Part shown: positions 4,862-40,958 of the stretch, piece by piece
Position numbering within the stretch: position 1 is the stretch's first letter
Layout: every line of letters starts with the position of its first letter
NCBI GenBank assembly: GCA_022825085.1
Contig: JAJDYQ010000036.1
Location: 3,007 to 67,006 of the forward strand
Direction: 5' to 3'
DNA length: 64,000 nt
From: Gammaproteobacteria bacterium
Lineage (GTDB): Bacteria; Pseudomonadota; Gammaproteobacteria; JAJDYQ01
Made by a program: the position numbers and the translations under genes
Notes under the pieces: generated by a model
The model's input: only the letters and a program-made list of their open reading frames with translations
Told to the model about the DNA's origin: nothing
The model's database searches: none

Positions 4862-4966
4862 ACGGTGTCAGCCTCGGTCCATTCAGGCGGGAGTTTTATG
4901 ATGCGACTCTTTTCAGAAAGGTCTTGAATATCAGGCCCCTGTGTCAGGTCTATATCCGTCACCGGT

Positions 4967-5566
4967 TTATAATCCATCGCTACCAATCCGGTGATGTAAT
5001 CGTTGTACACGCATTGCAAAGCGTTCGACATCCGCCCGCAGCTCATCGACACCACGGACAAACTGCTCAACTTCATCCCTGACAGGCAGCTGTCGAGTCT
5101 CGGTCTGTAGATAATCTCTCAGGTCTTCGGCAAAAGCCTGTTTGGCTTGTCCCCCCCACTGTCGGCAATAACGAATTGTTTCACCGATATGAAAAGCGAT
5201 GGCATCCCCGGTATAGCGGGATAACCATTCCTCCCAGTCAAGATCAATGCCCTGCAGTAAATCTCCGAATGCCCGAGCGGCCTGCAGATCGCCGTCGAAT
5301 CGGAGATCGCGAGTATTGTTGCCGGAACCTGCACTGGCCAGGGCCAGTGGTGTGCCGGATATAGTGGCATCAGCACACTGCTCGAATTCATCCAGCAAAA
5401 TAACGTGGTCAGCAGTGAACCGGAAGAACAATGCCAGATCGACACCGGTCAGGTTAAGGCAGATACACCGACCATCCAGAGCGGGACAGATCAGGTCGGG
5501 TTGCTCCATAAGCAAACGATTAAAAGTGGCTTCAATACCAGCGAGGATAACGCCGGGCAGTTTCAA
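4967..5566 (-). CDS. ubiJ: Ubiquinone biosynthesis accessory factor UbiJ (SCP2-like)
   Basis: 199 aa located between ubiE and ubiB as in E. coli yigP. It has an N-terminal SCP2-like region and a C-terminal amphipathic helix. There is a 4-nt overlap with ubiE. Confidence 0.7.
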
Positions 5567-6336
5567 AACCGGTAACCCCGATGTACGGCGACGATGCCGC
5601 CTGCCAGATTATAGAACTGACAGCTCTCAAAGCCGGCTTCCTGCATCATGCACTTCAGTGTCTCCTGATCCGGGTGTCGTCGGATAGATTCTGCCAGATA
5701 GCGATAACTCTCTTCATCGCCGGCGATAGTCCGGCCCATTTTGGGCAGCACAGAAAAGGAATATAAATCATATAACCGGCTCAATCCCGGCACAGTGGGT
5801 TTTGAAAACTCCAGCACCAGCAAGCGCCCTCCCGGTTTCAGGCAGTGATACATGGAACGCAGAGCATTTTGCTTTGCCGTGACATTGCGCAGACCAAAGC
5901 CAATAGTAATGACATCAAAAAAGCGATCCGGGAACGGCAATGACTCGGCATCGGCCAGTACATATCTGACATTGCCGCTGATGCCCTCATCAATCAGACG
6001 GTCACGACCATTGCTGAGCATGGCAGGATTAATATCGGCAACGACCAGTTCGCCGTTATGGCCGATTGCCGACCACATGCGGGCAGCCAGATCGCCGGTA
6101 CCACTGGCCAGATCCAGCACGCGGTTGCCCGGCTTGAGCTGGCACAGGCTGACAGTAAAACGCTTCCAGAGACGATGCAGGCCACAGGACATGATATCGT
6201 TCATTACATCATATCTGTCGGCGACAGAATCAAAGACCTGCTTTACCCGCCGGGATTTTTCATCGTAGGGCACATCCTCGTAGCCGAAATCGACATAGCA
6301 TTTTTTGTCTGTAGCATCAACCATTTGACACAGCAT
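5563..6336 (-). CDS. ubiE: Demethylmenaquinone/ubiquinone C-methyltransferase UbiE
   Basis: SAM-binding motif [11 protein letters not shown] and full-length UbiE/MenG-like sequence. The true start may be a few codons inside (MVDATDKK). Confidence 0.9.
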
Positions 6337-11150: not shown

Positions 11151-12164
11151 GTGTTGCCAGACAGTCAATCCTGGAAAGGTTCTTCTATGTTAATGTCTAG
11201 AAACAGATCCAAAATAAGCCTCAGAGTAGTTTCTCGTAACAAGGCGAGGGTGCGTGTTGCAATGCAAGTTCTCAAGGAGGTATTATTCGTCTATCGAAAT
11301 GCGGTCAATACCGACATTATCATTGTGGACTGGAAATGCTATCGCCCCGTTGGTCCATCATTGAATGCCATGGTTGGTATCGCATGGTTTCTGGAAAGAT
11401 GGGGCGTCACTCTGAAGTTTAAGCATCCTTCCAATGCAATGTGGCGACATTTCGAGAATAATACTCTGGCTAACTCAACGAACAGAGCAGAGCAAAAATA
11501 CCGTTCCGCCCGGCGGGTTATTATGTCTAGTTATATAGACTATATTGGGCATCGCTTTATTTCTTCCAAATATGGGCACAAAGTGCTCACCCAACTGTCC
11601 ATTAAGAAAGACCCCCAAAAGTCTGCGGATGAATGGTTTGCAAGCCATATCAAGGGGGATTGGGTGACCGTCCATTATCGTGGTACAGATGTAAGGAAGT
11701 ATAAGGACGGGTGGTGTAAAAGGAGATACAAAATAGATCTCAAGTCGTATGTTACCTATTTAAAGGCAGTGCTGGACAGTCAATGCAGCATTTTTGCCTG
11801 TTCGGATCAGGCACAGTTCATTGATGAGATGAAGGCGGCATTTCCAGGGTGAGTATTCGCACGAGATATAAAACGTTCTTACGATGACAAGCATCTTCAT
11901 GTTGATAGTGTCCCATTTGTGAACCCCAAGAGACCAGTGATAGATGCCGTGGTATATGCTCAGGAGAGAGATGCCTTGATAGATATTTTGGTATTGGCAA
12001 AGGCCGGGTTAATTTATACAATCGGTTCGGGGTTTATCAATGTGGTCAGATATTTCAATCCAGAGATTAAAGTTGTATCGCTGGACGGAAGAACAATAGG
12101 GAGGGGAAAAAACAATATGCCTATTCCTAGACAGGATTTATTCAAAAGATTGTCTTTGCTTTGA
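11151..12164 (+). pseudogene. Fucosyltransferase-like glycosyltransferase, paralogue 1, interrupted by one in-frame TGA
   Basis: ORFs 11151..11852 and 11919..12164 are in the same frame. The only interruption is TGA at 11850-11852, where paralogues 2-4 have Arg (AGA, CGA, CGG). The rest is collinear with the intact copies. Confidence 0.65.
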
Positions 12165-12251
12165 AGGGGTATGATGTGGCTGCCAGCTACCATATACATT
12201 CGATGGTGTCCGTATATCGCATAAGATTTTAATCCAAATCAGGTATTTGTA

Positions 12252-13184
12252 ATGTCTATTTCAAAGATTCGGCATACGGTCAGGCTTAATATAGCAAGGA
12301 TGTCGCTGGTAAAAAGAATATTATTATTCTATTGGGAGACTGTCGGTGTCGACAGTATCACTATGGGTTGGAAACGGTGTCGCCCTATTGGCCCGTCATT
12401 GAATAGTATGATTGTTGCCGCATGGTTTGCGGAAAGACGAGGCAAGCTTCTGAGATTTAAGCCTTCTCCTAATACAATATGGCGATATTTCGAGAATGAT
12501 ACCCTGGTCAACGCAATGAACAGACTAGGACAAGAGCACTGTTCTTCCCGGGAGATTCTCAGGATGAATTCGCTGTCTTGTCTTGGTCCTCTTATGTCCT
12601 CTGCATATGGATATAAGGTACTCACCCGGTTGTCCATCAAGGAAGATCTCCAAAAATCTGCTAACGAATGGTTTGAAAACCATATCAAGGGAGATTGGGT
12701 GGCTGTCCATTATCGTGGTACGGATGTATGGGGGGAGCCCAAGAGAGGGTTGAATAAAAGATGCAGATTAGAACTCAGGTTGTATGTGACTTATCTGAAA
12801 GAGGTGCTGGGAACCCAATGCACCATTTTTGCGTGTTCGGATCAAGCACAGTTCATTAATGAGATGAAAGTGGCATTCCCAGAGAGAGTGTTCGCACGCA
12901 ATATAAAACGCTCTTACAGTAACAAGCCTATTCATAATGATGGTCATCGACCGACACATCACGATAATAAAATATTCGAGCAGGAGGCAGATGCTTTGAT
13001 AGATATTCTGGTATTGGCAAAGGCCAGATTAATCTATACAACCGGCTCAGCGTTTGTGGATGTGGTCAGATACTTTAATCCAGAAACTAAAATTGTATCG
13101 CTGGATGGAAGAACAATAGGGAGGGGAAAAAACAATATGCCTATTCCTAGACAGGATTTATTCAAAAGATTATCCTTGTCTTGA
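12252..13184 (+). CDS. Fucosyltransferase-superfamily-like glycosyltransferase, paralogue 2
   Basis: 310 aa carrying three motifs in the order and form of the alpha-2/alpha-6/O-fucosyltransferase superfamily. They are VAVHYRGTDV (HxRxxD), IFACSDQAQF (xxSD/TD) and ADALIDILVLAKARLIYTTGSAFVDVVRYF (D..L....fIgT.sS.F). Confidence 0.6.
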   Translation: MSISKIRHTVRLNIARMSLVKRILLFYWETVGVDSITMGWKRCRPIGPSLNSMIVAAWFAERRGKLLRFKPSPNTIWRYFENDTLVNAMNRLGQEHCSSREILRMNSLSCLGPLMSSAYGYKVLTRLSIKEDLQKSANEWFENHIKGDWVAVHYRGTDVWGEPKRGLNKRCRLELRLYVTYLKEVLGTQCTIFACSDQAQFINEMKVAFPERVFARNIKRSYSNKPIHNDGHRPTHHDNKIFEQEADALIDILVLAKARLIYTTGSAFVDVVRYFNPETKIVSLDGRTIGRGKNNMPIPRQDLFKRLSLS

Positions 13185-13377
13185 GGGAACTCTGCATGGT
13201 TGCTGTCAGGTTGTCAGTTACCATTCCTTAGTCAAATCAGTTCACATCAGTTTAAGTCAATGACACAAAATTATGAACGCTACCGAATAACGGTGTCGCA
13301 AATCAAAGAGCCAGTAGTGTAGTATGTTGTTGGTGGGCACTGCCTCTTCTCAGTTATGCCAAATGCTTTCATGAATA

Positions 13378-14307
13378 ATGATTCAATCGATTATCAAGGA
13401 TAACAAAGTAAGACTGCAGCTTGCTAAAGGAATTTTGGGGGAGGTGCTACTGCTCTATTGGAACATAACCGGCACTGACAGTGTCACTCTGGATTGGAGA
13501 GGGAAAAATTATCGCCCTGTTGGCGCATCATTAGATTTCATGGTTGCCGTGGCATGGTTTATAGGAAGACGCGGCAAATTGCTGAGGTTTAAGCGGCCTT
13601 CTTATGCAATGTGGCGATACTTCGAGAATGATGCTTTGGATAGCTCAACAAACAAACTGGAGCGAAAATCCCGCCCCTCAAAGGAGGTTGCTGCAGGCTA
13701 TCCAGTGCTTTATCTTGCTCGTTTTATTTCCTCCGAGTATGGACATAAAGTGATCACTCGATTATCTATCAAGGAAGATTTTCAAAAATCTGCTAATGAA
13801 TGGTTTGCAAGCCATATCAAGGGAGATTGGGTGGCCGTCCATTATCGTGGTACGGATGTAGCGAAGATTAAGGACGTGTATAAAAAGAGATACAAAATAG
13901 ACCTCAAGCCATATGTGACTTATCTAAAAGAAGCGCTGGGCAGTCAATGCAGCATTTTTGCCTGTTCGGATCAGGCACAATTCATTGATGAGATGAAGGC
14001 GGTATTTCCAGGGCGAGTATTCGCACGAGATATAAAACGCTCTTGCGATGACAGGGCTATTCATAAGCACACTGCCCAATGTAAAGAGCAAGATATTTAT
14101 GATCAGGAGAGGGATGCCTTGATAGATGTTTTAGTATTGGCAAAGGCCGAATTAATCTATACAACCGGTTCAGGGCTTGTGGATGTGGTCAGGTATTTCA
14201 ATCCAGAGACTAAAATTGTATCGCTGGACGGAAGAACAATAGGGAGAGGGAAAAACAATGCGCCTATTCCTGAGCCGGATTTATTCGAAAGATTATCCCT
14301 GCCTTGA
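13378..14307 (+). CDS. Fucosyltransferase-superfamily-like glycosyltransferase, paralogue 3
   Basis: 309 aa with the same three motifs. The 3' third and about 65 nt of 3' flank are nearly identical to paralogue 4. Confidence 0.6.
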   Translation: MIQSIIKDNKVRLQLAKGILGEVLLLYWNITGTDSVTLDWRGKNYRPVGASLDFMVAVAWFIGRRGKLLRFKRPSYAMWRYFENDALDSSTNKLERKSRPSKEVAAGYPVLYLARFISSEYGHKVITRLSIKEDFQKSANEWFASHIKGDWVAVHYRGTDVAKIKDVYKKRYKIDLKPYVTYLKEALGSQCSIFACSDQAQFIDEMKAVFPGRVFARDIKRSCDDRAIHKHTAQCKEQDIYDQERDALIDVLVLAKAELIYTTGSGLVDVVRYFNPETKIVSLDGRTIGRGKNNAPIPEPDLFERLSLP

Positions 14308-14475
14308 GGGTCGCTGTATGATTGCTGTCCAGTTTATGATATCCAAGGTGTTGCTATCTCTTCCCTGAAGTCAGAGGTTATTCCTCGATCTGAGCACGGT
14401 GTATCCCGAAGCCACATTTCAGAAAATGCTCTGAAAGTTTTATACCGGCTGAGCAAGGCCGGGTATGACGCCTAT

Positions 14476-26616: not shown

Positions 26617-27546
26617 ATGATCCTTACCAGAATCATACCTACAAAAGAAAGGGTGCGGTTTGCAAAATTAACTTTGCGGCACGCATTATTATTCTTGCGA
26701 AATACAGTGAGTGCAAACAGTATTACTGTGGATTGGAGAGAGAATTACCCTGTTGCTACAGCATTAGATTGCATAGTTGCCGCGGCATGGCTTCTGGAAA
26801 TACGGGGCATCACCCTGAAGTTTAGGCAGTCCTCCAATGCAATGTGGCAGCATTTCGAGAGTGATACTCTGAGCAAGGCAACGGACAGGTCAGAGCAGGA
26901 ATCCAGCTCTTCCCGGGAGGTTATTCTGGCCAAATCGATGGCCTATATTGCGACGATTTTTATTTCCTCCGAGTATGGACATAAAGTAATTACCCGATTG
27001 TCTATCAAGGAAGACCTCAGAAAGTCTGCCAATGAGTGGTTTGAAAACCATATCAAGGGAGATTGGGTAGCCGTCCATTATCGTGGCACAGATATAAGGG
27101 AAAATCGGAATGGATATTGTAAAAGCAGATACAGGATAGAGATGAAGCCGTATGTGAATTATCTGAAAGGGGTGCTGGACAGTCAATGCAGCATTTTTGC
27201 CTGTTCGGATCAGGCACAATTCATTGATGAGGTGAAGGCGGCATTTCCAGGGCGGGTGTTCGCGCGAGATATAAAACGCTCTTACGATGGCAAGCCTCTT
27301 CATCTTAACTTTGTCCCGCTTGCGGAGAGTCACGATTATGATCAGGAGAGGGATGCCTTGATAGATGTTTTAGTATTGGCAAAGGCCGAATTAATCTATA
27401 CAACCGGTTCAGGGTTTGTAGATGTGGTCAGATATTTTAATCCAGAGACTAAAATTGTATCGCTGGACGGAAGAACAATAGGGAGAGGGAAAAACAATGC
27501 GCCTATTCCTGAGCCGGATTTATTCAAAAGATTATCCCTGCCTTGA
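26617..27546 (+). CDS. Fucosyltransferase-superfamily-like glycosyltransferase, paralogue 4
   Basis: 309 aa with the same HYRGTD / IFACSDQ / ERDALIDVLVLAKAELIYTTGSGFVDVVRYF motifs. The last ~70 residues are almost identical to paralogue 3. Confidence 0.6.
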   Translation: MILTRIIPTKERVRFAKLTLRHALLFLRNTVSANSITVDWRENYPVATALDCIVAAAWLLEIRGITLKFRQSSNAMWQHFESDTLSKATDRSEQESSSSREVILAKSMAYIATIFISSEYGHKVITRLSIKEDLRKSANEWFENHIKGDWVAVHYRGTDIRENRNGYCKSRYRIEMKPYVNYLKGVLDSQCSIFACSDQAQFIDEVKAAFPGRVFARDIKRSYDGKPLHLNFVPLAESHDYDQERDALIDVLVLAKAELIYTTGSGFVDVVRYFNPETKIVSLDGRTIGRGKNNAPIPEPDLFKRLSLP

Positions 27547-31975: not shown

Positions 31976-32402
31976 AATCGCACCAGGCAGCCGCATCACC
32001 ATGCACCTTTCACTCACCCTCGAAGACGGCACGGTAGCAGAAGACACGTTTGACGGAGAACCACTGGAATTTACGATGGGCGATGGCAGCCTGAACGAAG
32101 GTCTGGAAATGGCACTGTATGGCCTCAGGGCCGGCGACGAACAAACCGTGACCATGACGCCCGATCAAACATTTGGTTTTTACGACCCGGAAAACATCCA
32201 TGAAGTACCCCTGAGCGATTTTCCCGCCGATGCCCGACCTGAAGAAAACCAGATTATTGTCTTTACCACACCATCGGGCGATGAAGTAGCCGGAGCCATC
32301 AGGAAAGTTTCAACGGATACCGTGCTGGTTGACTTTAACCACCCACTCGCCGGCCATGATTTGCTGTACAGGGTAAAAATTCTGAAGGTTGCCCGCATTT
32401 AA
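31968..32402 (+). CDS. fkpB: FKBP-type peptidyl-prolyl cis-trans isomerase (FkpB/SlpA type)
   Basis: ITMHLSLTLEDGTVAEDTF...EFTMGDGSL...LEMALYGLRAGD...VDFNHPLAGHDL, FKBP with an IF insert. The start is taken at MSEIAPG. This is the usual position after lspA. Confidence 0.85.
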   Translation: MSEIAPGSRITMHLSLTLEDGTVAEDTFDGEPLEFTMGDGSLNEGLEMALYGLRAGDEQTVTMTPDQTFGFYDPENIHEVPLSDFPADARPEENQIIVFTTPSGDEVAGAIRKVSTDTVLVDFNHPLAGHDLLYRVKILKVARI

Positions 32403-33670
32403 GAACAGGCGGCAGCATGGATTGTGAGCAGTAACTCGGACTCATCAATCAGGCGATATTCCGGCACCTTCCCGGATAGCTGTTCGCTTTTATCGAGGAT
32501 AATCGACACCCCTTCCCCCCGTTTATCCATAATATGCGTGCGATGACTGACGAGGCCATCCTGCGCAATCGGACAGCGTGCCAATTGGCTGGTAATTGCT
32601 TCATTTCTGGTGGCCTGCCGAAGTGGCAGACTTTCCGGAGTCATCGTATTGACCAGAAGCCCCGGCGTGTATAACTCCAGTCGATCATCAAATAACCGAA
32701 GCCGTACCTTGCTGCCCGACATGGAATAGTCCCGATGGGCTACCGCGTTGGTGACCGCCTCAAATACAGCAGTCATGTCATACTGGGGAATATCCTCGCG
32801 TCCACCCCCGGAATTTTTTCTCGCCGCCACCCGCATATTTTTTTCAACAAACCGACATGCCTCAATGATCTGCTGATCCAGCGGCCCGGCTATATCCTGG
32901 GCATCGCGCTGATATGCCTCCTCCGAACCTGCGGATATCGCGGTTCCACGGTATGCGACTGCCTGAATGAAGGCATTGGAGAGAAACTGTTGGGGTTGTC
33001 TGGAGGCTAACAGCACGCCAGCTATCGTGGGTCGCCAGACACCAGCGTCATCCTGGAAAGCCATGCCGAGTTTGGAGAGAAACAGCCCGGTCGAATCAGT
33101 TGTGAGTGGCGTCGCAAAGCGCTGCCACAGCGCCTCATCCAGATCATCAAGTGTCGCAGTGGGAACGGGTATTTCGTCATACCGGATAAGCCTGGACTGG
33201 CTGCGCTGCTGAAATAATCGCTGCAGTTGTTCAGGAGAGACGGGTCGCTTTGATGAGCCGACACGATGAAAATAACCCCCCGGACTTTGGTGAACAAACA
33301 GGCTTCGGGGAATCTCCACACGCACTACTGGCCTCTCAGTCCCGGTACTATCCGGCAGGTTCATGCGTTCGATAATGGGAGTTGCAGGCGGTTCCAGAGA
33401 ATCTTCACAAGCCTGCCTCACCAGTGCTTCCACTGCATCCAGTCGCTCAACAGGAATTCCTGATACTTCGCGCTCGTCATCGACCCCTAAAAGGAGCACA
33501 CCCCCGCGTGAGTTGGCAAAAGCAGCGAGTTCATCGGCAAGGGCATCCCGCCTCGGTCCCCGTATCTCACCACCTGCAAAGCGAACTTCCTTCAATTCCA
33601 GAAAGCAGCCTTCCCCAAGACTGATTTTTTTCAGTAATTCACTGCGTGTCGCGTACATGTCAGATCTCAC
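32399..33670 (-). CDS. AlbA_2 (Schlafen-like, 'divergent AAA') + HATPase_c_4 domain protein
   Basis: 423 aa with a GTG start. The N-terminus LELKEVRFAGGEI...LADELAAFANSRGGVLLLGVDDEREVSGIP shows the AlbA_2 pattern. The C-terminus (FEAVTNAVAHRDYS...VRLRLFDDRLELYTPG) shows the HATPase_c_4 pattern. Confidence 0.65.
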   Translation of the reverse strand: MRSDMYATRSELLKKISLGEGCFLELKEVRFAGGEIRGPRRDALADELAAFANSRGGVLLLGVDDEREVSGIPVERLDAVEALVRQACEDSLEPPATPIIERMNLPDSTGTERPVVRVEIPRSLFVHQSPGGYFHRVGSSKRPVSPEQLQRLFQQRSQSRLIRYDEIPVPTATLDDLDEALWQRFATPLTTDSTGLFLSKLGMAFQDDAGVWRPTIAGVLLASRQPQQFLSNAFIQAVAYRGTAISAGSEEAYQRDAQDIAGPLDQQIIEACRFVEKNMRVAARKNSGGGREDIPQYDMTAVFEAVTNAVAHRDYSMSGSKVRLRLFDDRLELYTPGLLVNTMTPESLPLRQATRNEAITSQLARCPIAQDGLVSHRTHIMDKRGEGVSIILDKSEQLSGKVPEYRLIDESELLLTIHAAACS

Positions 33671-34185
33671 GACCTGAATGAACCCAACTCGAAGGCATCA
33701 ATCTGCCGTTTCAATCCCTTGAGCGTGTCGCGTCCGGCGACTCTTGAAATCGGTTGGTCAGGTTCGCGGCGCTTGAAAATAACGTACTGCACCATGCTTT
33801 CGCCGAGAAATTGCAGGCCCATCTGGTTTTCATGGTTGTCCTTCCAGACAGCGCGTAGATTGCCGTTATCCATCAACACCAGATTCCCCCTGCGTAAATG
33901 GGGTTCTGACTGGATAAAGCGCCAGAAGTCGGCCTCGGATGCGCTGCTCAATGAATACCCGTCATCCGCCCCAAGATCGCGCAGTTCGCTGATTCTCGTT
34001 GAGTATGCTTGAGATTGAGTTTGTTGCAAATCGATCAAAGCAAAAGCAGTGCCGGAGAGGGTTGAAATCGAAGAATTGCTATCGCATTCAGGTGTTTGAT
34101 GATCCCTGATTATTCGGATTGCAGCAACCTGTGCGGTTCCGTCCCAGAGGCGGCTCAATGTTAAATGTGGGTTTAATCTCCACAC
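33667..34185 (-). CDS. Hypothetical protein (start uncertain), translationally coupled to the AlbA_2 gene
   Basis: The stop TGA overlaps the GTG start of the downstream gene (GTGA at 33670-33667). I recognise no motif. The first ~33 codons overlap the 70-aa ORF in another frame. Confidence 0.35.
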   Translation of the reverse strand: MWRLNPHLTLSRLWDGTAQVAAIRIIRDHQTPECDSNSSISTLSGTAFALIDLQQTQSQAYSTRISELRDLGADDGYSLSSASEADFWRFIQSEPHLRRGNLVLMDNGNLRAVWKDNHENQMGLQFLGESMVQYVIFKRREPDQPISRVAGRDTLKGLKRQIDAFELGSFRS

Positions 34186-34300
34186 CCAGTTTGCTCAGTT
34201 CCCGCTCCAGTTGTTCGTGGGCAGAAACGACTGCCTTGTCGATGTTCTTGTTTTCTTTGGCAATTTTTTTTAAGTTCCCCAATTTTCTTTGATCTCGCAT
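34088..34300 (-). CDS. Hypothetical small protein downstream of the SDH-family protease
   Basis: 70-aa ORF starting 2 nt after the protease stop. It has a charged helical N-terminus (KLGNLKKIAKENKNIDKAVVSAHEQLERELSKLG) and an odd tail (GRNRTGCCNPNNQGSSNT) lying in the overlap with the next ORF. Confidence 0.3.
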   Translation of the reverse strand: MRDQRKLGNLKKIAKENKNIDKAVVSAHEQLERELSKLGVEIKPTFNIEPPLGRNRTGCCNPNNQGSSNT

Positions 34301-34301
34301 G

Positions 34302-35159
34302 CTAAAAATACTCCTTTGTATGAATGAAGGATGGATGGTTCTCGCGAACCATATAGTCTGTCAATAGACCAAAGTATGCACGAACCTGCTTATAAAGCTT
34401 AGCATTATCTTCAAGGTTGTCAATTTTTAGTTTGACCTCATCCCCACGTAGTGTTTCTCTATCAATGGCGCGACCGTGAGAATGCCACCTTTCGGGGTTA
34501 TTAAGCAGCGCAGCAATCTTTCCGGCTCGGTCTTCTTTCATTTTCTCGGTTACATTTTTTTGACGTCTCTCCGTTTTCTCCCAGTTCTTAAATTTATATT
34601 GGGTTAGCCACTTAATGAGCAGCTCAATCGACAGCTCTCTTGCTTGTTCGAATTGATACAATTCACCCAAGTCCAGCTTATTCAGCAATGCATACTCGGC
34701 GGTTGTAAGCGCCCTTTGCTTCGCCTTCTCGTTTAATCGCTCATACTGATTCAAATAAGATAACGCAGGAACGAGCTTTCCATCTCTTTCAATCTGTGGA
34801 TCAATCGGGCCCAAGCATGACAAGTGATCCATTATTATCCGGTCTGCACTCAGAGCAAAAATTGTACCCGCAGACATTGCTTGATCGGGTACGATTACTG
34901 TCATATCGTCATAGAATGATCGAATCGTCGTCACCATTCGTTCCACAATCTCGACTATTCCGCCAGGAGTGTCCAAAATGACAGCGACTGGTTTTTGGTG
35001 CGATAAGCTTTCAATTGCGACACGAAGCTTCAACTCTAATCCATGTAGTATAGGGCTTACTACAGTAACGACTTCCGCATCGATAGTTTTGCCAATTTGG
35101 ATCAATTGCCGATTTAATTCGCTTTTAATGCAGGTGTCTAAAGGTCTCATGATTGTCAC
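34302..35159 (-). CDS. SDH-family Clp-fold serine proteinase (ClpP/SppA-like)
   Basis: 285 aa. VAVILDTPGGIVE (compare ClpP INSPGG) and DQAMSAGTIFALSADRIIM (nucleophile-Ser strand), then a helical C-terminal extension. The start is GTG at 35159 or ATG at 35150. Confidence 0.6.
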   Translation of the reverse strand: MTIMRPLDTCIKSELNRQLIQIGKTIDAEVVTVVSPILHGLELKLRVAIESLSHQKPVAVILDTPGGIVEIVERMVTTIRSFYDDMTVIVPDQAMSAGTIFALSADRIIMDHLSCLGPIDPQIERDGKLVPALSYLNQYERLNEKAKQRALTTAEYALLNKLDLGELYQFEQARELSIELLIKWLTQYKFKNWEKTERRQKNVTEKMKEDRAGKIAALLNNPERWHSHGRAIDRETLRGDEVKLKIDNLEDNAKLYKQVRAYFGLLTDYMVRENHPSFIHTKEYF

Positions 35160-35368
35160 TATAACAAGATCAAAACTATTGTCGATATCACTCCGGTGTT
35201 AGTATCACAATGCACGTCTTATCGCAAACCGGGCTTCTATAGTACAGGTTCTTAGGCAATTCTTCCCGGCACAATGGGTGATGCGACGGACAGCCAATTC
35301 CGGGGGTGTATCTCGATTGCGAATGCGGGCTGTCGCTTTGCTTCTTCGTTTGCTGCTCATCATATCAG

Positions 35369-36523
35369 TCATGTGTCCGCTTCCAGCAGATGGAACATGA
35401 GGGAGGTGGTCAGGTTGTCTGCGGCATGTGACCCGCGCATTGCCAGTTTGGAATTGGTATGCGCTGACTCGACAATGTTTGTGAATTGTTGCTGTTGCTT
35501 CAGTGGGGGCACGGTAATCCAGATATTCTTTATGTCTTTATCGGATACTGCCGGGTAGTTTGCTCCCCTGACTTGTGACGATATTGTTTCTACGAAAAAC
35601 GGTGATGTGACATGGCTGAATAGATAAAGTGGTTCTATCAATTTACGGTTCGCTCGCAGTACGCAAAAGCCGGTTGATGCAATTTCACGATTCAGTTCAT
35701 CTGGCACGATTGCAACGGCATTCAGATTCGGTCTGACCGACGATACAAGGATATCATCCGTCCGAATTTCCTTTCTTGCCCGACTTGGCGCATCTTTGCC
35801 GAGCAGCAATCGGGTGGCGGCAATTCTCTTCTGAACGGTGTCAATACCGGAAATATCGACATAGCGAAATTGAGCTGAGGGAGTTTCTCCGGGGTTGCGG
35901 GTCTCTGTCTGCACGCAAACCTGCCCTATCCTGCATTTCGTCCACCCCATCGGATTGTCTGTCGGGTTGCCGAACATTTTGATGAACAGGGCCGGGATGA
36001 ATTCCTGCAGGCGTTCCTGTGCCTGTTTGCGCAGCCGCTCGATTTTGGCCGCCCGGTTCAGGATGTTGACGATGCGGCGTTGTTCGTTGAGCGGGGGGAG
36101 GGGAATTTCCAGATTTTGAACATCCCGCAACGTAATGCCCTTGACAGTCGCGCCTGTTCCCTTGTGTTCGATCTCTGGGCCAAGGTACTTCAGCGACCAG
36201 AACAAGAACTCGGGTAGCAGGCCTTCAGCAGGCACAACGGCCTTGATGTCTTGGTTTATCGCAAGATCGACATCGGCTATTGCGACTTTACCTAGACCTA
36301 CCCTTGTTACAAGGAGAACAGTCCCCGACGAAACAATTTTCGACGCCGAGTTATCCAGCCCTTCCTGAGAAATGAACTCATCCGTTTGCGAGATTCGATC
36401 TGCTCGAAAATCCTTCACGGTCGCCCACGGAATGTGTCCATTCCAATATTGCCGAATTTTCCGGGATGGTGTTCCCCCGCCCATGAATTGGCAAATCTCA
36501 CCGAGTGAGGTCGTTGATATCAT
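35369..36523 (-). CDS. hsdS: Type I restriction-modification specificity subunit HsdS
   Basis: 384 aa with two TRD halves, each ending in a conserved helix (PLPPLNEQRRIVNIL... / VPPLKQQQQFTNIV...). There is a 4-nt overlap with hsdM. Confidence 0.9.
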   Translation of the reverse strand: MISTTSLGEICQFMGGGTPSRKIRQYWNGHIPWATVKDFRADRISQTDEFISQEGLDNSASKIVSSGTVLLVTRVGLGKVAIADVDLAINQDIKAVVPAEGLLPEFLFWSLKYLGPEIEHKGTGATVKGITLRDVQNLEIPLPPLNEQRRIVNILNRAAKIERLRKQAQERLQEFIPALFIKMFGNPTDNPMGWTKCRIGQVCVQTETRNPGETPSAQFRYVDISGIDTVQKRIAATRLLLGKDAPSRARKEIRTDDILVSSVRPNLNAVAIVPDELNREIASTGFCVLRANRKLIEPLYLFSHVTSPFFVETISSQVRGANYPAVSDKDIKNIWITVPPLKQQQQFTNIVESAHTNSKLAMRGSHAADNLTTSLMFHLLEADT

Positions 36524-38151
36524 TGGGAAGTTGTTCTCCGAACCGCCTCGGCCAACCCCTCAGTCTCCCCCAGAATCTCCGTCTCAATCGCCCGCAATTC
36601 CTCCAGAATTTCCAGTGGGTCGCGGTGTTCTACCCTGGCCCGGTTTTGTGGTCGGTGGCGGTTGGCGCTGAGGTTGTAGTCGGCGGTGCGGATGGCGTCG
36701 GTGTCGGCGAACCACCATTTTTCTGTCCAGTCGGTGTTCGGGTCGCGGTCGTGCCATGTTATCCATTGTGCCTGCCGGTTGCGGAATGCTTCGGTCAGGG
36801 CGGGCAGGTCGTCTTCTTCGATGGGCTGGTCGTGGTTGGCGTCCAGTTTGAAGCCGTCGTTGTCGGCGTGCAGGAACATCACCCGCTCGGTTGTGCCGCC
36901 CTTGCGGAATATCAGTACCGAGGTTTTGACGCCGGAGTAGGGGTTGAATACGCCGCCCGGCAGTGACAGCACGGCTTCGATGGTGTTGTTTTCGAGCAGT
37001 TTGCGCCGCAGTTCGCGGTGTGCGCCGGTGGAGCCGAACAGTACGCCTTCCGGGACGACGACCCCGCAGCGGCCGCCTTCCTGCAACTGGTTGAGCATGT
37101 ATTGCAGGAACAGCAGTTCGGTCTGCGCCGTTTTGCCGATTTTCACGTCTTCGACAATGCGGTCCTTGTCCAGTCGGCCGGAGAATGGCGGATTGGCGAG
37201 GATGACATCGAATCCATTGGCGGGCAGGCCGAGTTCCGCTCTGGCGGTGCGGTCCAGTGAGCGGGTCAGGGCGTCACGCCGCAATATGTGGACATGGTCG
37301 AGGCCGCGCAGGGTCAGGTTCATGGTGGCGAGGCGTACCATCTGCGGATCAACATCGGTGCCATAGAAGGTGGCCTCGTGTAGCTGTCTGACCGCATCGC
37401 GGCTGAGTATGTCGCCCAGCCCGCGCCGGATTTTCTTGCCATCCGCCTCCATTTCTTCAATGCCGTCGGGCGAGGAGTTGGCGAGCCGGATGTGGTCCCA
37501 GGCGCCGACCAGAAAGCCGGCGGTGCCGGCCGCCGGGTCGTATATCGTTTCGCCAATGCGGGGATCGACCAGTCGGATCAGGGTGCGGATGACATGGCGC
37601 GGTGTGCGGAATTGGCCGAGTTCGCCGGCCTGCCGGATCTGGCGCAGCACATGCTCGAACAGGTCGCCCTTGGTATCTGCATCCACGCGGTGCAGATGCA
37701 GGTCGTTGAGCTGGCTGACTACCTGGGTGAGCACGGTCGGTTCGTCGATGATCAGCCGGGCACCGTCCATGAAGTCAGTCGCGCCATTGGCAGCGATTGC
37801 GGCATGGAATGCGAAGACTTCTTCGCGTACCCAGTTGACCAGCCGCTCGCCGTTCAGTGCATTCGCCCAGGATGACCAGCGCAGCCGTTCTCCCGGCACG
37901 GTGGTCTCGCCCGATTGGGGTGCATTGCGTGGGTCGCGCAGGGTCCATTTGTCTTTGAAGGCGCTGTTGTAGGGTGCGGTGCCCGGTCGCTTTGCCGCAC
38001 GTACCCGCGCCGCGTCTGCTGCTTCGTACATATAGAAATAGATCAGAAAACTGAGTTGTTCGGCGTTTTGTGCGGGGTTCGGGTAGCCGCCGCCGAACAG
38101 GTAATCGCGGATGCGGTCGATGCCGCGCCGCAGTTCGGGGGTCATGGGCAT
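36520..38151 (-). CDS. hsdM: Type I restriction-modification DNA methyltransferase HsdM (N6-adenine)
   Basis: 543 aa with motif I (YDPAAGTAGFL) and motif IV (ILANPPFSG). An HsdM N-terminal helical domain is present. Confidence 0.93.
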   Translation of the reverse strand: MPMTPELRRGIDRIRDYLFGGGYPNPAQNAEQLSFLIYFYMYEAADAARVRAAKRPGTAPYNSAFKDKWTLRDPRNAPQSGETTVPGERLRWSSWANALNGERLVNWVREEVFAFHAAIAANGATDFMDGARLIIDEPTVLTQVVSQLNDLHLHRVDADTKGDLFEHVLRQIRQAGELGQFRTPRHVIRTLIRLVDPRIGETIYDPAAGTAGFLVGAWDHIRLANSSPDGIEEMEADGKKIRRGLGDILSRDAVRQLHEATFYGTDVDPQMVRLATMNLTLRGLDHVHILRRDALTRSLDRTARAELGLPANGFDVILANPPFSGRLDKDRIVEDVKIGKTAQTELLFLQYMLNQLQEGGRCGVVVPEGVLFGSTGAHRELRRKLLENNTIEAVLSLPGGVFNPYSGVKTSVLIFRKGGTTERVMFLHADNDGFKLDANHDQPIEEDDLPALTEAFRNRQAQWITWHDRDPNTDWTEKWWFADTDAIRTADYNLSANRHRPQNRARVEHRDPLEILEELRAIETEILGETEGLAEAVRRTTSQ

Positions 38152-40277
38152 TATCCTTTCTCCATGCGGGAATCGTCCGGTTTGCCAAACACGGCGGCAT
38201 TGAGTTCGGTGATCAGCCGCTCCAGGGATTGCTCGCCGCCGAACACGCGCCGCGCCTGGTCGTAGCCTCCGAGTGCAGTGAACGGGTGACCGTCAAAGTC
38301 CCATTCGCCAAACGCATCCATCATGTCTGTCTTGACACGGCTGCCGATCAGCCCTACCCAGCGCATCTGTTCGGTGTTGAATCCTTTGTGTTCGCTTCGC
38401 CATGCCTCAAATTTCATGCCGATGGCAGCAGCGCGTGCTTCGTGTTCCGGCGGACGCACGATCCGACCGCTTTCGTCCAGAGTGAGCCAGTCGCGGCTCA
38501 TCGGGTCGATGTGGTCGTTGACATCCAGGGTCAGCAGTTGGTGGGGTTCACCGGGGGTGTAGCCGGGTTGCGTTTCGTGGATATGACTGCCGCTGACTGC
38601 TGCATCGTCGTCGCCGTGAAAATCGGTCACGCCGACAAAGTCGAAGATCGTGAATCCGGTCTTGTCGATATGCGGTGCCTTGCGGGTGCCGCGCCCGCGC
38701 ATCTGCCGGTACAGGATGGTGCTGCGGGTGAATCGCGCCATGACCAGATTGACCACTTCCGGGCAGTCAAAGCCGGTATCGAGCATGTTGACGCTGACCA
38801 GGATTTGCGGGAATTCTTCTTCCTTGAAGCGTTTGATGATGGCACCGGGATCGGGTGCCGGACCCCCACCGACATCGCTGACCACGAAGTCGGCGTAGCG
38901 CGTCGCCGGATGTGGTTTTTTGTCGGCGAAGTGTGCATCGAACATTTCTGCCAGTGTTTCGGCATGTCGTTTGGTCACCGCGAACACGATGGTTTTGCCC
39001 CAGGTGGGCCAGCGTCGGATGCCGTCGCGGCCCATGAAGCCCTTTTCGTGCGCATCACGAAATTCCCTTACCAGGGCGCGGTTGCGTTCGGGGATGGTGA
39101 ACCGGCGTTCCAGGGTGCGCGGATCGACCGTGATGGTGTCCTGGCCCAAACTGGCGAATTGTTTTTCAAATTCGGTACGGGTCTGTTCGTCCATCGCGCT
39201 CCAGTCGAGTTCGTTGCGGCTGACCGGGAATCCACCTTCGGCAGCGGTTTTGACGGTCATGGCCCGGTATATGCGGTAGGGGACCAGATGGCCTGCATGG
39301 ATGGCGGTGCGCAGGGTGTAGCGGTAGGTCGGTTCGGTGAGTTCGAAAAATCGCAGTGTGTCGCGCACGAATTGACTGTCTTCCGGGTCGGGGGAGTGGT
39401 CGGCCTCCGCGGTGCAGGGGGTGGCGGTCAGGCCGAGTTGAACGCCATCGAAATGTCGCAGTACGCCACTCCACTGGCCGTAGATGGAGCGGTGGCATTC
39501 GTCGGTGATGACCAGATCGAAGTAGCCGGGGGAGAGGTTGCGGTAGTCTGCAATCAGGGTTTGCAGGGTGGCGATGGTGATGCGTTTGGCGCGGTCAAAG
39601 CCACGACCGGGGCGCAGCACATGGCAGGGGTAGTCGCGCAGGTGGTCGGTAAAGGCGTCTTCGGCCTGCCGCGCCAGGGCGATGCGATCCACCAGAAACA
39701 GTACGCGGGTGATCCTGCCTGCCTCGAACAGTCGCTTGATGAAGGCGGTCGCTGTGCGGGTTTTGCCGGTGCCTGTCGCCATTTCGACCAGCAGTTTGCG
39801 TCGTCCACGGGAGACTTCGGCAGACAGTGCTTCAATACATTCTATCTGGTAGTCGCGGTTGACGATTTGCCGGTCGATGGCGATTGTGGCGAGGTCGCGG
39901 CGGGTCTGTCGTGCTGCGATGTGCCGTTCGAGATCGTCCTGGGCATAGAAGCCAGCGATTGGGCGGGCGTGGGCGTCTGTTTCCCGGTCCAGAAATCGCA
40001 CTTCTTCGCCATTTGACAGGAATACGAAGGGTACATTGAGCTGTTCGGCATAGTGGCACCCCTGGTCCTGCGCTGTTATGGGGTCGGTGCTGGCCCGCTT
40101 GGCTTCCAGTATTGCCATGGGCCGGCCCTGTCGGTCGCACAGCACATAGTCGGCCTGGGTGCCGTCGGGCAGGGTGTGTTCGAATAACACGCTGGAGCCG
40201 TCAGTCAGGTTCCAGCTTGCATCCTTGAGCAGGGCATCGATCTTGACTCGTGCGAAGGCTTCGGTGGTGCCGCTCAT
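38151..40277 (-). CDS. hsdR: Type I restriction endonuclease subunit HsdR (short form)
   Basis: 708 aa. N-terminal PD-(D/E)xK nuclease (DYVL...ILEAKRAS), Walker A MATGTGKT, DEAD-box ITDECHRS, helicase C motifs (MRGRGTR). Confidence 0.9.
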   Translation of the reverse strand: MSGTTEAFARVKIDALLKDASWNLTDGSSVLFEHTLPDGTQADYVLCDRQGRPMAILEAKRASTDPITAQDQGCHYAEQLNVPFVFLSNGEEVRFLDRETDAHARPIAGFYAQDDLERHIAARQTRRDLATIAIDRQIVNRDYQIECIEALSAEVSRGRRKLLVEMATGTGKTRTATAFIKRLFEAGRITRVLFLVDRIALARQAEDAFTDHLRDYPCHVLRPGRGFDRAKRITIATLQTLIADYRNLSPGYFDLVITDECHRSIYGQWSGVLRHFDGVQLGLTATPCTAEADHSPDPEDSQFVRDTLRFFELTEPTYRYTLRTAIHAGHLVPYRIYRAMTVKTAAEGGFPVSRNELDWSAMDEQTRTEFEKQFASLGQDTITVDPRTLERRFTIPERNRALVREFRDAHEKGFMGRDGIRRWPTWGKTIVFAVTKRHAETLAEMFDAHFADKKPHPATRYADFVVSDVGGGPAPDPGAIIKRFKEEEFPQILVSVNMLDTGFDCPEVVNLVMARFTRSTILYRQMRGRGTRKAPHIDKTGFTIFDFVGVTDFHGDDDAAVSGSHIHETQPGYTPGEPHQLLTLDVNDHIDPMSRDWLTLDESGRIVRPPEHEARAAAIGMKFEAWRSEHKGFNTEQMRWVGLIGSRVKTDMMDAFGEWDFDGHPFTALGGYDQARRVFGGEQSLERLITELNAAVFGKPDDSRMEKG

Positions 40278-40699
40278 GTTGCCGTCCAGGGATCGATGAC
40301 TTCTACATCCATGCCCTCGAAGTCGCGGATGTTGCGGGTGACCACTGCCATTTCCTGCGAACGTGCGATGGCAGCTATCTGGCAGTCGATTGGTGCGATG
40401 GGGCGACCGATGGCGCGGTGCATGGCGGCAATGTCTGCATATTGGCAGGCTGCAGCGCGGTCGAAAGAAAGGATTCGACCATTGAAATCTTCTCGCAAAA
40501 TTGCCTCGACCACGAGAGCAAGCGCATCCCGGCGTCGGCCCATAGGTAGAGTCGCAACACCATAGCGCAACTCCGCTTCACCAACCGCCGAGAAATATAA
40601 ATCTATCGCTGAACGTTCCTCGACCCACGCCTCTACCGCCGGATGCAGCGACGGACGCAGGAGTTCGGATACGACATTGGTGTCAAGCAGCCAGGACAC
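40274..40699 (-). CDS. vapC: PIN-domain ribonuclease toxin VapC (FitB-like)
   Basis: LLDTNVVSEL...AVGEAELRYG...DCQIAAIA...VVTRNIRDF, PIN acidic residues. I place the start at GTG 40699, 10 nt after the vapB stop. The stop overlaps the hsdR ATG (ATGA). Confidence 0.85.
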   Translation of the reverse strand: MSWLLDTNVVSELLRPSLHPAVEAWVEERSAIDLYFSAVGEAELRYGVATLPMGRRRDALALVVEAILREDFNGRILSFDRAAACQYADIAAMHRAIGRPIAPIDCQIAAIARSQEMAVVTRNIRDFEGMDVEVIDPWTAT

Positions 40700-40709
40700 G
40701 GTCGTATGC

Positions 40710-40958
40710 TTAATCGAAGGAAGGCAGTTCACGCCCCGGGCCGCGTGGTGGCAACTCCAGGTCCACTCCACCGAGGGGCTCGATCCGGGCTCGGATGATA
40801 CTCACAAGATTCCGGCAATCCGGTTTGTGACCGACAGCTTGGCGGAGGATCTGTCGGGCTTCCTCTTCCATTGAGCGGTGATGTTCCGCAGCCTGCACGC
40901 GCAGACGCGCCTTTACATCGTCGTCGAGATTGCGAATCGTGATGCTTGCCATGGTCAT
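40710..40958 (-). CDS. vapB: Antitoxin VapB (FitA/Arc-like ribbon-helix-helix)
   Basis: 82 aa, MASITIRNLDDDVKARLRVQAAEHHRSMEEEARQILR, a typical RHH antitoxin N-terminus. Confidence 0.8.
   Translation of the reverse strand: MTMASITIRNLDDDVKARLRVQAAEHHRSMEEEARQILRQAVGHKPDCRNLVSIIRARIEPLGGVDLELPPRGPGRELPSFD

Follow-up and report, generated by a model that had tools for sequence, protein, structure and literature searches.

A probable cassette mosaic behind a type I restriction operon in a sponge symbiont, with one intact SDH-type protease and mini-protein pair

Background

Lambda rexAB is the prophage exclusion operon located downstream of cI. The Clp-fold protease 1510-N of Pyrococcus horikoshii cuts the C-terminal region, or tail, of its operon partner stomatin. 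FS_HP_SDH_sah is a DefenseFinder system, reportedly PICI-encoded and due to Fillol-Salom et al.; Ppl (PADLOC model PDLC02208) reportedly goes back to Gao et al. in 2020. Payne et al. 2024 (bioRxiv 10.1101/2024.01.29.577857) describe, under the term "guilt-by-embedding", genes that lie within Hma, BREX, DISARM and type I restriction-modification (R-M) systems; the main text mentions a protease once, in a generic sense, and has no occurrence of Clp, SDH, AlbA, Schlafen or TIGR04255. The literature searched on PF01972, SDH_sah, WP_021518647 and ClpP-like anti-phage proteases yielded no study of function.

Four co-oriented open reading frames on the minus strand lie downstream of hsdS in the window, the whole stretch of 64,000 nucleotides that was analysed, as a sequence-only reading had reported. 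That reading had proposed that they form a single defence module. We consider it likely, at a probability of about 0.7, that the 3-kb stretch, located where a type I R-M locus of a sponge symbiont changes rapidly at its end, is instead a palimpsest of three unrelated small cassettes: an intact protease pair (cassette A), an orphan gene of the orf172 family (cassette B) and an AlbA_2 gene without its Ppl partner (cassette C). Cassettes B and C are broken, and only the protease pair is complete.

Table 1. Positions of the features discussed, numbered along the window
Feature	Position	Strand	Evidence
AlbA_2 (Schlafen-core-like) + HATPase_c_4 protein, 419 aa	32399..33658	-	Pfam; relatives; stop converges on the fkpB stop
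Deletion scar	33660..33677	-	Last 15 nt of the Ppl-like ATPase gene (GGTCGTGAGATCTGA) fused to the orf172 3' end
Orphan orf172-family gene, probably 123 aa, TTG start 34038	33667..34038	-	Homology; starts in L125 and P0121
Small partner, 70 aa	34088..34300	-	tblastn; HMM; alignment; AlphaFold2
Recombination breakpoint inside the small gene	34269	.	Comparison of L125, X4 and X2
SDH-type Clp-fold serine protease, 282 aa	34302..35150	-	PF01972; NF047768; alignment
Spacer, hsdS to protease	35151..35368	-	Promoter-like site at 35185-35158; blastn of L125 against the window
hsdS-hsdM-hsdR, type I operon	35369..40277	-	GC 0.61; context

Gene content downstream of hsdS

The four reading frames and their domains proved real, although three of the starts first assigned to them, those of the protease, the 172-aa ORF and the AlbA_2 gene, had been mis-set. 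The protease start was placed at ATG 35150 (MRPLD) rather than at GTG 35159 because all homologues begin there and because nucleotide similarity to the homologous locus L001 begins at 35149. The protein scored 74.3 bits against Pfam PF01972 (SDH_protease), above the gathering cut-off of 31.3, in a partial match that aligned residues 47-155 with profile positions 83-188 of 286, and 84.2 bits against the NCBIfam equivalog model NF047768, below its cut-off of 250. This match and the motifs ILDTPGG and QAMSAGT bore out the original assignment to the Clp-fold SDH family. Weak matches to models of ClpP-related head-maturation proteases and of SppA were also observed. Ser93 (AMSAGT), His225 (WHSHGR) and the three aspartates Asp103, Asp108 and Asp117 were invariant across an alignment of 23 sequences. 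AlphaFold2 run with 23 close homologues gave a poor model (pLDDT 59.7), and the candidate triad is thus a feature of the alignment. Homologues of the protease numbered more than 5000, and PADLOC 2.0.0 had no model matching either member of the pair, in keeping with the earlier remark that a protease of this kind is not known from any named defence system.

The small gene begins 1 nt past the protease stop, not 2 nt as had been stated, and the same 1-nt gap was found in most of the homologous loci. Pfam, NCBIfam and PADLOC gave no match to its 70-aa product. Modelled alone with AlphaFold2, the product showed a confident helix at residues 22-38 followed by an extended tail, KLGVEIKPxFNIEPPLG, with the family form KPx[FY]xLEPPLG. 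This tail is the most conserved part of the small protein and was modelled as non-helical at low confidence.

The 172-aa ORF had been described as lacking any recognisable motif, and it indeed had no Pfam, NCBIfam or PADLOC match; its length did not stand. Homology to its family begins only at approximately 34101, and the first usable start, TTG 34038, gives a protein of probably 123 aa. The same start position occurs in the sister strain L125 and in the 93%-identical P0121, which makes the 98-nt overlap between this frame and the small ORF an artefact of a mis-called start. For the 423-aa protein described at the end of the stretch, the SLFN_AlbA_2 and HATPase_c_4 domains were borne out while the start was moved to ATG 33658, giving 419 aa (P0243); its relatives are approximately 420 aa long.

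The GC content was 0.42-0.45 in the protease and small ORF, 0.52-0.56 in the last two genes and 0.61-0.64 in hsdM and hsdR, which put figures to the compositional shift noted at the outset. The promoter-like site in the spacer had 10/12 matches and a TG extension and was not above shuffle expectation; scans for terminators and promoters likewise returned counts no higher than shuffle expectation.

Turnover between sister strains

Strain L125 has 98.2% nucleotide identity to the window and carries Ppl. Its similarity to the window stops at 35346 (blastn), which marks the left edge of a swappable slot. A second edge falls within the small gene, and from this breakpoint toward the 3' end of the gene the strains agree at 93%. 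Upstream of it the cassette varies: the window has the protease, L125 and sample X4 have an AriA/PtuA-like ATPase, and sample X2 has other sequence. Further sponge samples keep the L125 form, without the protease. In L125 the small gene is intact and stands beside the unrelated ATPase with no protease, an arrangement that fits an antitoxin-like partner, though the small protein could also have a role of its own. As a cassette in its own right, the small gene with the AriA-like ATPase of L125 was unsupported; the only plasmid homologue of the ATPase (Zymomonas) had no small-partner match nearby. With regard to the protease and to Ppl, each present in some strains and absent from others, the window and its sister strains constitute natural knock-outs.

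The junction between the last two genes is a deletion scar. A stretch of 2,994 bp that is present in the sister strain is missing from the window (blastn, L125 positions 3249/6244 against window positions 33677/33674), and of the Ppl gene immediately upstream of AlbA_2 only the last 15 nt are left. The GTGA overlap had been read as a GTG start coupled to the preceding stop; it is not translational coupling because it sits in the last codons of the deleted Ppl gene. The deletion also changed the last four codons of orf172 (GSFRS* versus GSLLYE*). It took the Ppl gene out of this strain and left AlbA_2 behind, intact, as the second gene of a former pair. AlbA_2 is normally the second member of such a pair, with a Ppl-like ATPase gene preceding it in L125, L126, L127, L128 and L130. 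The 923-aa protein of L125 matched the PADLOC Ppl model at E 1e-125 and that of L126 did so over its full length at 7e-127. L127 carries a shorter form of 557 aa matching the C-terminal part of the model (E 4e-61), and the L128 and L130 partners agree with the Ppl-like ATPase in size and Pfam domains. AlbA_2 proteins had been said to accompany hsd loci; they do, and they were found with BREX and Hma loci as well.

The orf172 family belongs to a different gene set, which usually consists of a TIGR04255 protein, the orf172-family protein and a partner of approximately 150 aa. The last of these follows the orf172-family gene in approximately 42 of 47 loci and the TIGR04255 gene precedes it in approximately 20 of the 47. 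Two loci (L072 and L078) show the set behind hsdM, 83% identical to that of the window, and hsdS. Searches of the window with both partners (tblastn) gave no relevant match, and only the conserved C-terminal domain of orf172 is present here. The gene would then be the surviving domain of the middle member of the TIGR04255 set, and without both partners it is probably non-functional alone. Its truncation is less certain than the loss of its partners, and is not proven, since short forms of approximately 110-150 aa exist among the family members listed.

Distribution of the protease pair

The small partner, 66-70 aa long, was detected directly behind the protease in 53 of 71 loci by tblastn and in 65 of 71 by HMM, including every locus with an intact protease. 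The pair retained 52-76% identity across more than 10 phyla, its flanking genes were heterogeneous, and nucleotide similarity to L001 covered 35149 to 34109 only, that is both genes and nothing more. It transfers between phyla as a self-sufficient unit. Many of its neighbours were housekeeping genes.

Whether such proteases are enriched beside defence genes had been raised as a question, and homologues were often found beside or inside methylation-based defence systems, with Hma, type III or type I R-M, or MADS genes within approximately 6 kb in at least 18 of 65 loci. HmaA and/or HmaB lie close to the pair in the same orientation in five loci (L014, L018, L020, L026 and L036). The pair is flanked by HmaA and HmaB in L036 and by HmaB and HEC-01A in L026; in L014 it immediately follows HmaA and precedes an HmaB-type methylase. 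A type III-like methyltransferase adjoins the pair in six loci, and hsdR, mad3 and Dsr1 genes also adjoin it. Two different lambdoid prophages of E. coli carry a pair in the rexAB slot, directly behind cI; its protease, named SDH-type Clp-fold serine proteinase in RefSeq, is a 43%-identical homologue (E 1e-63). The pair was also seen on plasmids and, in one prophage, beside HicAB, and relatives of the protease occur in temperate phages. An origin as an integron gene cassette was considered with respect to the cassette array at 43-50 kb in the window and was rejected; a generic repeat search found no attC-like repeat at 34040-34110 or 35150-35370, and orf172 homology starts within approximately 10 nt of the stop of the small gene, which leaves no room for an attC there.

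Proposed function and alternative explanations

The pair can reasonably be regarded as a candidate anti-phage cassette, and its context suggests that it most likely acts as a protease-based anti-phage (abortive-infection) or toxin-antitoxin-like unit. The conserved, unstructured tail of the partner (KPx[FY]xLEPPLG) may sit in the protease or be cut by it, and would thereby gate protease activity. Methylation-based defence operons, either within them or next to them, and the prophage slot downstream of cI are frequent landing places of the pair. A tentative extension, which we regard as possible rather than probable, is that the protease and mini-protein constitute an immune or toxin-antitoxin module distinct from FS_HP_SDH_sah and spread over many phyla, in which the tail would be a pseudo-substrate lock on an ATPase-independent Clp-fold protease, released by phage infection, and that, separately, Ppl may be a two-gene system with the AlbA_2/HATPase_c_4 (Schlafen-core-like) protein as partner.

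A plain addiction module, which would stabilise its island or prophage without acting specifically against phages, with the protease as toxin and the small protein as labile or inhibitory antitoxin, is an unlikely alternative. Like type II toxin-antitoxin modules, the pair couples two genes tightly in one operon and includes a small partner, and its 1-nt spacing, plasmid occurrence, HicAB neighbour and the survival of the small gene without a complete protease (L125 and loci with truncated proteases) all agree with addiction. The large-first, small-second order is however less common in type II systems, Pfam, NCBIfam and PADLOC searches of the partner showed no DNA-binding domain, and positions in defence operons and in the rex slot are more characteristic of immunity genes. 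Another reading, prompted by the recurrent location next to or within Hma, type III and type I systems, that of the window included, is that the pair accompanies methylation-based restriction. It would then be a guard that responds to inhibition of R-M, or a restriction-alleviation protease that disposes of restriction subunits upon a change of specificity. Over two-thirds of the loci have none of the recurring restriction or defence gene families within their 8-kb flanks, and the 4-5 kb of flanking sequence displayed on each side of the E. coli copies after cI contain no R-M gene, which makes this explanation improbable.

Still less credible is a non-conflict role inherited from phages, for example in the processing of a phage or host regulator, or as a remnant of capsid maturation. 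The matches to the head-maturation and SppA models and the relatives in temperate phages speak for it, but no structural phage genes were found near the protease in the 71 chromosomal loci, the phage copies lie in accessory or early regions rather than in the head module, and the coupling is strictly to a 66-aa partner and not to a capsid or scaffold gene. Joint action of all four genes as a restriction-linked defence module would account for their tight packing, shared orientation and position directly behind the type I operon. That proposal took conserved linkage of the protease and the 172-aa ORF as its own touchstone, and because such linkage is absent it is already refuted, and we give it next to no weight. 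The 71 protease loci contained no orf172 match and a single, distant AlbA_2 match, and the 47 orf172-family loci contained no match to the protease, the small ORF or AlbA_2; in other loci each of the last two genes has obligate partners of its own, which are missing here. The pieces have also been swapped independently between sister strains, the overlap of the third and fourth ORFs is a deletion scar, and a GC gap of approximately 10 points separates the pieces. Two further parts of the sequence-only reading held up, namely that several acquisitions built the stretch and that it forms the variable, accessory end of an R-M locus within a defence island.

Neither tight packing nor a common orientation nor even an overlapping stop and start beside an R-M operon makes a module, and here the sister strain and the relatives of each gene split the supposed module into three cassettes, two of them broken. 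The protease and mini-protein are a very widespread, obligately paired set with a strong context (Hma and R-M systems, rex slot) and no PADLOC model. Type I R-M is also accompanied by a gene set, absent from the catalogues, that begins with a TIGR04255 protein. The variants in the sponge population show how fast such slots turn over.

Comparison with known systems

The small unrelated cassettes of this locus resemble those nested in or by methylation-based defence operons in the main text of Payne et al. 2024. The protease pair is found beside or inside Hma operons in at least five loci, and the Ppl and AlbA_2 pair is embedded in loci of the BREX, Hma-like and type I kinds; unlike embedded cassettes, the genes of the window follow hsdS rather than lying between hsd genes. 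Ppl is catalogued as a single-gene system, whereas among the relatives examined it usually travels with the conserved AlbA_2/HATPase_c_4 gene, which follows 1 nt later, and in the sister strain and L126 the protein upstream of AlbA_2 is a full-length match to the Ppl model.

The E. coli homologues of the protease pair share with lambda rexAB their position and orientation after cI, a positional likeness without any relationship in sequence or fold. The closest solved relative of the protease by sequence is the NfeD protease 1510-N (PDB 3bpp, 2deo; E 0.004), in which the motif of the nucleophilic serine aligns over a similarity of only approximately 80 residues; 1510-N differs in being membrane-anchored, in its Ser-Lys dyad and in having stomatin rather than a 66-aa mini-protein as partner. 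FS_HP_SDH_sah, among catalogued systems the nearest to the pair, likewise comprises two genes on a mobile element, a Clp-fold protease of the PF01972 (SDH_sah) family and a hypothetical protein. The SDH_sah protease gene that this system requires is present in the window. Judged by its name, FS_HP_SDH_sah would have the hypothetical protein first, whereas in the pair described here the small partner comes second.

Organization of the region downstream of hsdS

The region downstream of hsdS, from a sponge metagenome, is a defence-island slot in which three cassettes are layered as a palimpsest; one of them, the SDH-type protease gene and its small partner (pair A), is an intact candidate system. 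Four minus-strand ORFs follow hsdS after a gap of ~215 nt and the last is positioned stop-to-stop with fkpB. The sequence-only reading had proposed these as a single candidate defence module; the four ORFs and their domains are real, but the single module is not, as the pieces have separate partners elsewhere. A profile search identified the protease ORF as PF01972 SDH_protease (74.3 bits), with NfeD1b_N, Clp_protease and NF047768 as weaker matches, and the last ORF (AlbA_2) as carrying SLFN_AlbA_2 and HATPase_c_4 domains, both as originally called. The 70-aa ORF and the ORF called as 172 aa (orf172) had no matches in Pfam, NCBIfam or PADLOC. The GC content of the protease and small ORF was 0.42-0.45 and that of the last two genes 0.52-0.56, compared to ~0.52 for the backbone and 0.61-0.64 for hsdM/hsdR.

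Coordinates of features in the window and in loci of relatives (window positions unless a locus is named)
Feature	Coordinates	Strand	Remarks
vapC-like PIN	40274-40771	minus	First in gene order
hsdR, hsdM, hsdS	35369-40277	minus	After vapC-like PIN
55-aa Arg-rich ORF	35205-35372	minus	Probably no gene
Promoter-like site	35158-35185	minus	TCGACA, 16 nt, TG-n-TATAGT
Protease and 70-aa small partner (pair A)	34088-35150	minus	
AlbA_2/HATPase_c_4 gene	32399-33658		
309-aa gene	26617-27546		
Low-GC block	11282-14364		Three tandem stretches
Fused protease and small-partner frames	L032:8001-9044; L070:8183-8668		
Pair A relative and conjugation operon	L120:2039-4883		Rhizobium plasmid
Ppl-like ATPase and AlbA_2	L125:3487-7516; L126:3180-7263; L128:2198-6263; L130:2222-6272		ATPase ~925-940 aa then, 1 nt later, 420-aa AlbA_2/HATPase_c_4
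TIGR04255 protein (~265 aa), orf172-family (~205 aa), ~150-aa protein	L072:4207-6064; L074:4203-6088; L078:3973-5827		Stops/starts overlap
AriA/PtuA/OLD-like ABC ATPase, 543 aa	L125:898-2529		PADLOC AriAB, E 5e-24; exactly at window protease site, small partner kept intact behind

The ATG of a 55-aa Arg-rich ORF shares nucleotides with the hsdS stop (ATGA). Of the sequence past this stop, only the first ~23 nt are common to the sister strain (L125). A promoter-like site ends 8 nt before the protease ATG and, if used, would give a leaderless or near-leaderless protease mRNA, such sites being no more frequent than the shuffle expectation. Elsewhere in the window, the stretches of a low-GC block are 74-80% identical in DNA to the sister-strain copy of a 309-aa gene and are tandem paralogues of this unannotated gene.

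The protease and its small partner

Together, the protease and small ORF make up a single conserved mobile pair. The family of the protease (282 aa) has more than 5000 homologues, the best 120 of which are 67-78% identical, with Ser93 (AMSAGT), His225 (WHSHGR) and several Asp residues unchanged throughout the alignment. The start was assigned to the ATG at 35150 because the family consensus begins at MRPLD. Scanning one genome per species yielded 71 loci labelled as more than 10 phyla, mostly sponge-associated MAGs, with identities spanning 52-76%. The 70-aa ORF was directly behind the protease in 53 of the 71 by tblastn, mostly 1 nt past the stop, and an HMM built from 50 partners detected it in 65; the six misses were protease fragments or had a divergent small ORF at the same place. 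Nucleotide similarity between the window and one of these loci (L001) extended from 35149 to 34109, that is, over the two genes and nothing beyond.

The small partner has a variable, basic N-terminus followed by one confident helix in the predicted structure (residues 22-38, pLDDT 87-89) and an extended tail with the most conserved residues (G39, P44, P50, P51, L52 and G53; motif KLGVEIKPx[FY]xLEPPLG). In two loci, L032 and L070, the protease frame runs into the small-partner frame by fusion or frameshift. Pseudogenes or sequencing errors account for these cases, which could serve modelling as natural single-chain constructs.

No third conserved gene was present beside the pair among the loci compared. 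The nearest large neighbours included housekeeping genes (FlhB, Ddl, SmpB, UvrA) and also many restriction or defence genes, with representatives of the neighbour clusters matching HmaA (E 0), HmaB (E 0), HEC-01A, type III-like methyltransferases, mad3 and Dsr1. Such a restriction or defence gene was within ~6 kb of the pair in at least 18 of 65 loci, and HmaA and/or HmaB were close by in the same orientation in L014, L018, L020, L026 and L036.

Distant relatives on Methylosinus and Rhizobium plasmids have a small ORF behind the protease with a similar [FY]xLxP[PS][LF][GS] tail. One on a Rhizobium plasmid (L120) is directly behind an operon of multiubiquitin, ThiF-E1 and DUF6527 genes, a defence-associated type of ubiquitin-like conjugation system. 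Temperate phages also carry distant relatives, as do 20 of the 5426 complete genomes of E. coli. Two different lambdoid prophages of E. coli carry the protease (43% identical to the window protease over 221 aa, E 1e-63) and a 56-aa partner immediately after cI and co-oriented with it, a slot which in lambda is occupied by rexAB.

Remnants of two further cassettes

The window AlbA_2 gene is the surviving half of a Ppl and AlbA_2 pair. This ~420-aa family is very conserved (more than 7800 matches, the best 120 being 71-95% identical), and the start was placed at the ATG at 33658 because the database copy of the window protein is 419 aa. The sister strain is 98.2% identical to the window over 11.3 kb (window 33674 to 22399; AlbA_2, fkpB, lspA, ileS, ribF) and encodes, 1 nt upstream of AlbA_2, a 923-aa protein that matches PADLOC Ppl at full length (E 1e-125). 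The ATPase was identified by PADLOC Ppl in L125 and L126 (E 1e-125 or better) and assigned by size and Pfam domains only in L128 and L130. The pair is located behind hsdM-hsdS in L126, is flanked by PglX and PglZ within a Sedimenticola BREX locus (L128) and, in Acidithiobacillus (L130), is flanked by the genes of a DUF1156 methylase and a DUF499 protein; L127 also has the pair, and one relative, L131, lacks the ATPase beside AlbA_2. Ppl and AlbA_2 form a two-gene cassette that recurs within type I R-M, BREX and Hma-like loci.

Alignment of the junction placed 2,994 bp of the sister strain (L125 positions 3250-6243) as missing from the window, where orf172 now runs at its 3' end into the final 15 nt of Ppl (GGTCGTGAGATCTGA), altering the orf172 C-terminus from GSLLYE* to GSFRS*. 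The GTGA previously read as a translational overlap between orf172 and AlbA_2 was created by this deletion fusion.

orf172 is an orphan of a TIGR04255-headed gene set. Its family has at least 444 members, typically ~205 aa with no Pfam domain, which have in common a C-terminal domain of ~125 aa and vary at the N-terminus. A conserved ~150-aa protein is directly behind the family gene in ~42 of 47 loci and a TIGR04255-family protein precedes it in ~20 of 47, while the protease, small ORF or AlbA_2 flanked it in none of the 47. The set adjoins type I R-M genes, in the order hsdM, hsdS, TIGR04255 protein, orf172-family gene and 150-aa protein in L072 and L078, with hsdR also upstream in L072. The hsdM genes of these two loci are 83% identical to the window hsdM, and their DNA similarity to the window is limited to hsdR/hsdM, the hsdS core and the orf172 domain. 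Both orf172 partners are missing from the window. The orf172-family and ~150-aa proteins of the set had no Pfam or PADLOC matches.

Homology to the orf172 family begins at ~34101, a few codons from the stop of the small gene, and the first start codon within the homologous part is the TTG at 34038, which is also the start in the sister strain and in a 93%-identical database protein (P0121). The stretch upstream of this start is in a different reading frame in the sister strain, and therefore the longer 172-aa call, with its 98-nt overlap with the small ORF, reflects a mis-called start at a mosaic junction.

Turnover of the slot between strains

In the sister strain, the small gene and orf172 are intact and an AriA/PtuA-like ATPase takes the position of the window protease, and similarity to the window sets in again at 34269, a position within the small gene. 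In three further sponge samples from the same study, contigs span the backbone, AlbA_2, orf172 and the small gene's 3' part with 90-99% identity; depth is zero over 34417-35220 and low immediately above 34269. Loose ends in sample X4 at 33674, 33689 and 34269 reproduce the sister-strain arrangement, and sample X2 has a different sequence at 34269. Across the sponge samples this breakpoint was joined to at least two, probably three, upstream sequences, which suggests that the conserved part of the small gene is a recombination hot spot.

Proposed mechanism and comparison with known systems

Pair A is characterized by strict pairing with translational coupling, a soluble Clp-fold serine protease without an ATPase, a partner whose conserved part is predicted to be an unstructured tail, horizontal spread, and a location both within defence operons and in a prophage slot that is expressed in lysogens. 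By sequence, the protease is closest among solved structures to the 1510-N NfeD protease (E 0.004), which is known to cleave its operon partner in the tail. In the most economical model, the partner's tail would occupy the protease, or be cut by it, and so control it, and the pair as a unit would serve in abortive infection or in the manner of a toxin-antitoxin system. The small gene remains in L125, where the protease is lost, and in several loci with a broken protease; this is compatible with a neutralizing role, but only weakly, as the protease gene presents a target four times as large.

Catalogues list Ppl as a single-gene system, and the steady AlbA_2 partner in the relatives described here is a variant of note. 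No PADLOC 2.0.0 model matched the window pair, the E. coli pair or the Methylosinus protease. Among catalogued systems, DefenseFinder FS_HP_SDH_sah comes nearest, as a putative relative by model name. The proximity of pair A to Hma and R-M genes follows the same pattern as the 'embedding' of genes in defence operons described in Payne et al. 2024 (bioRxiv 10.1101/2024.01.29.577857), the main text of which makes no mention of Clp, SDH, AlbA, Schlafen or TIGR04255. The TIGR04255-headed set has no PADLOC counterpart.
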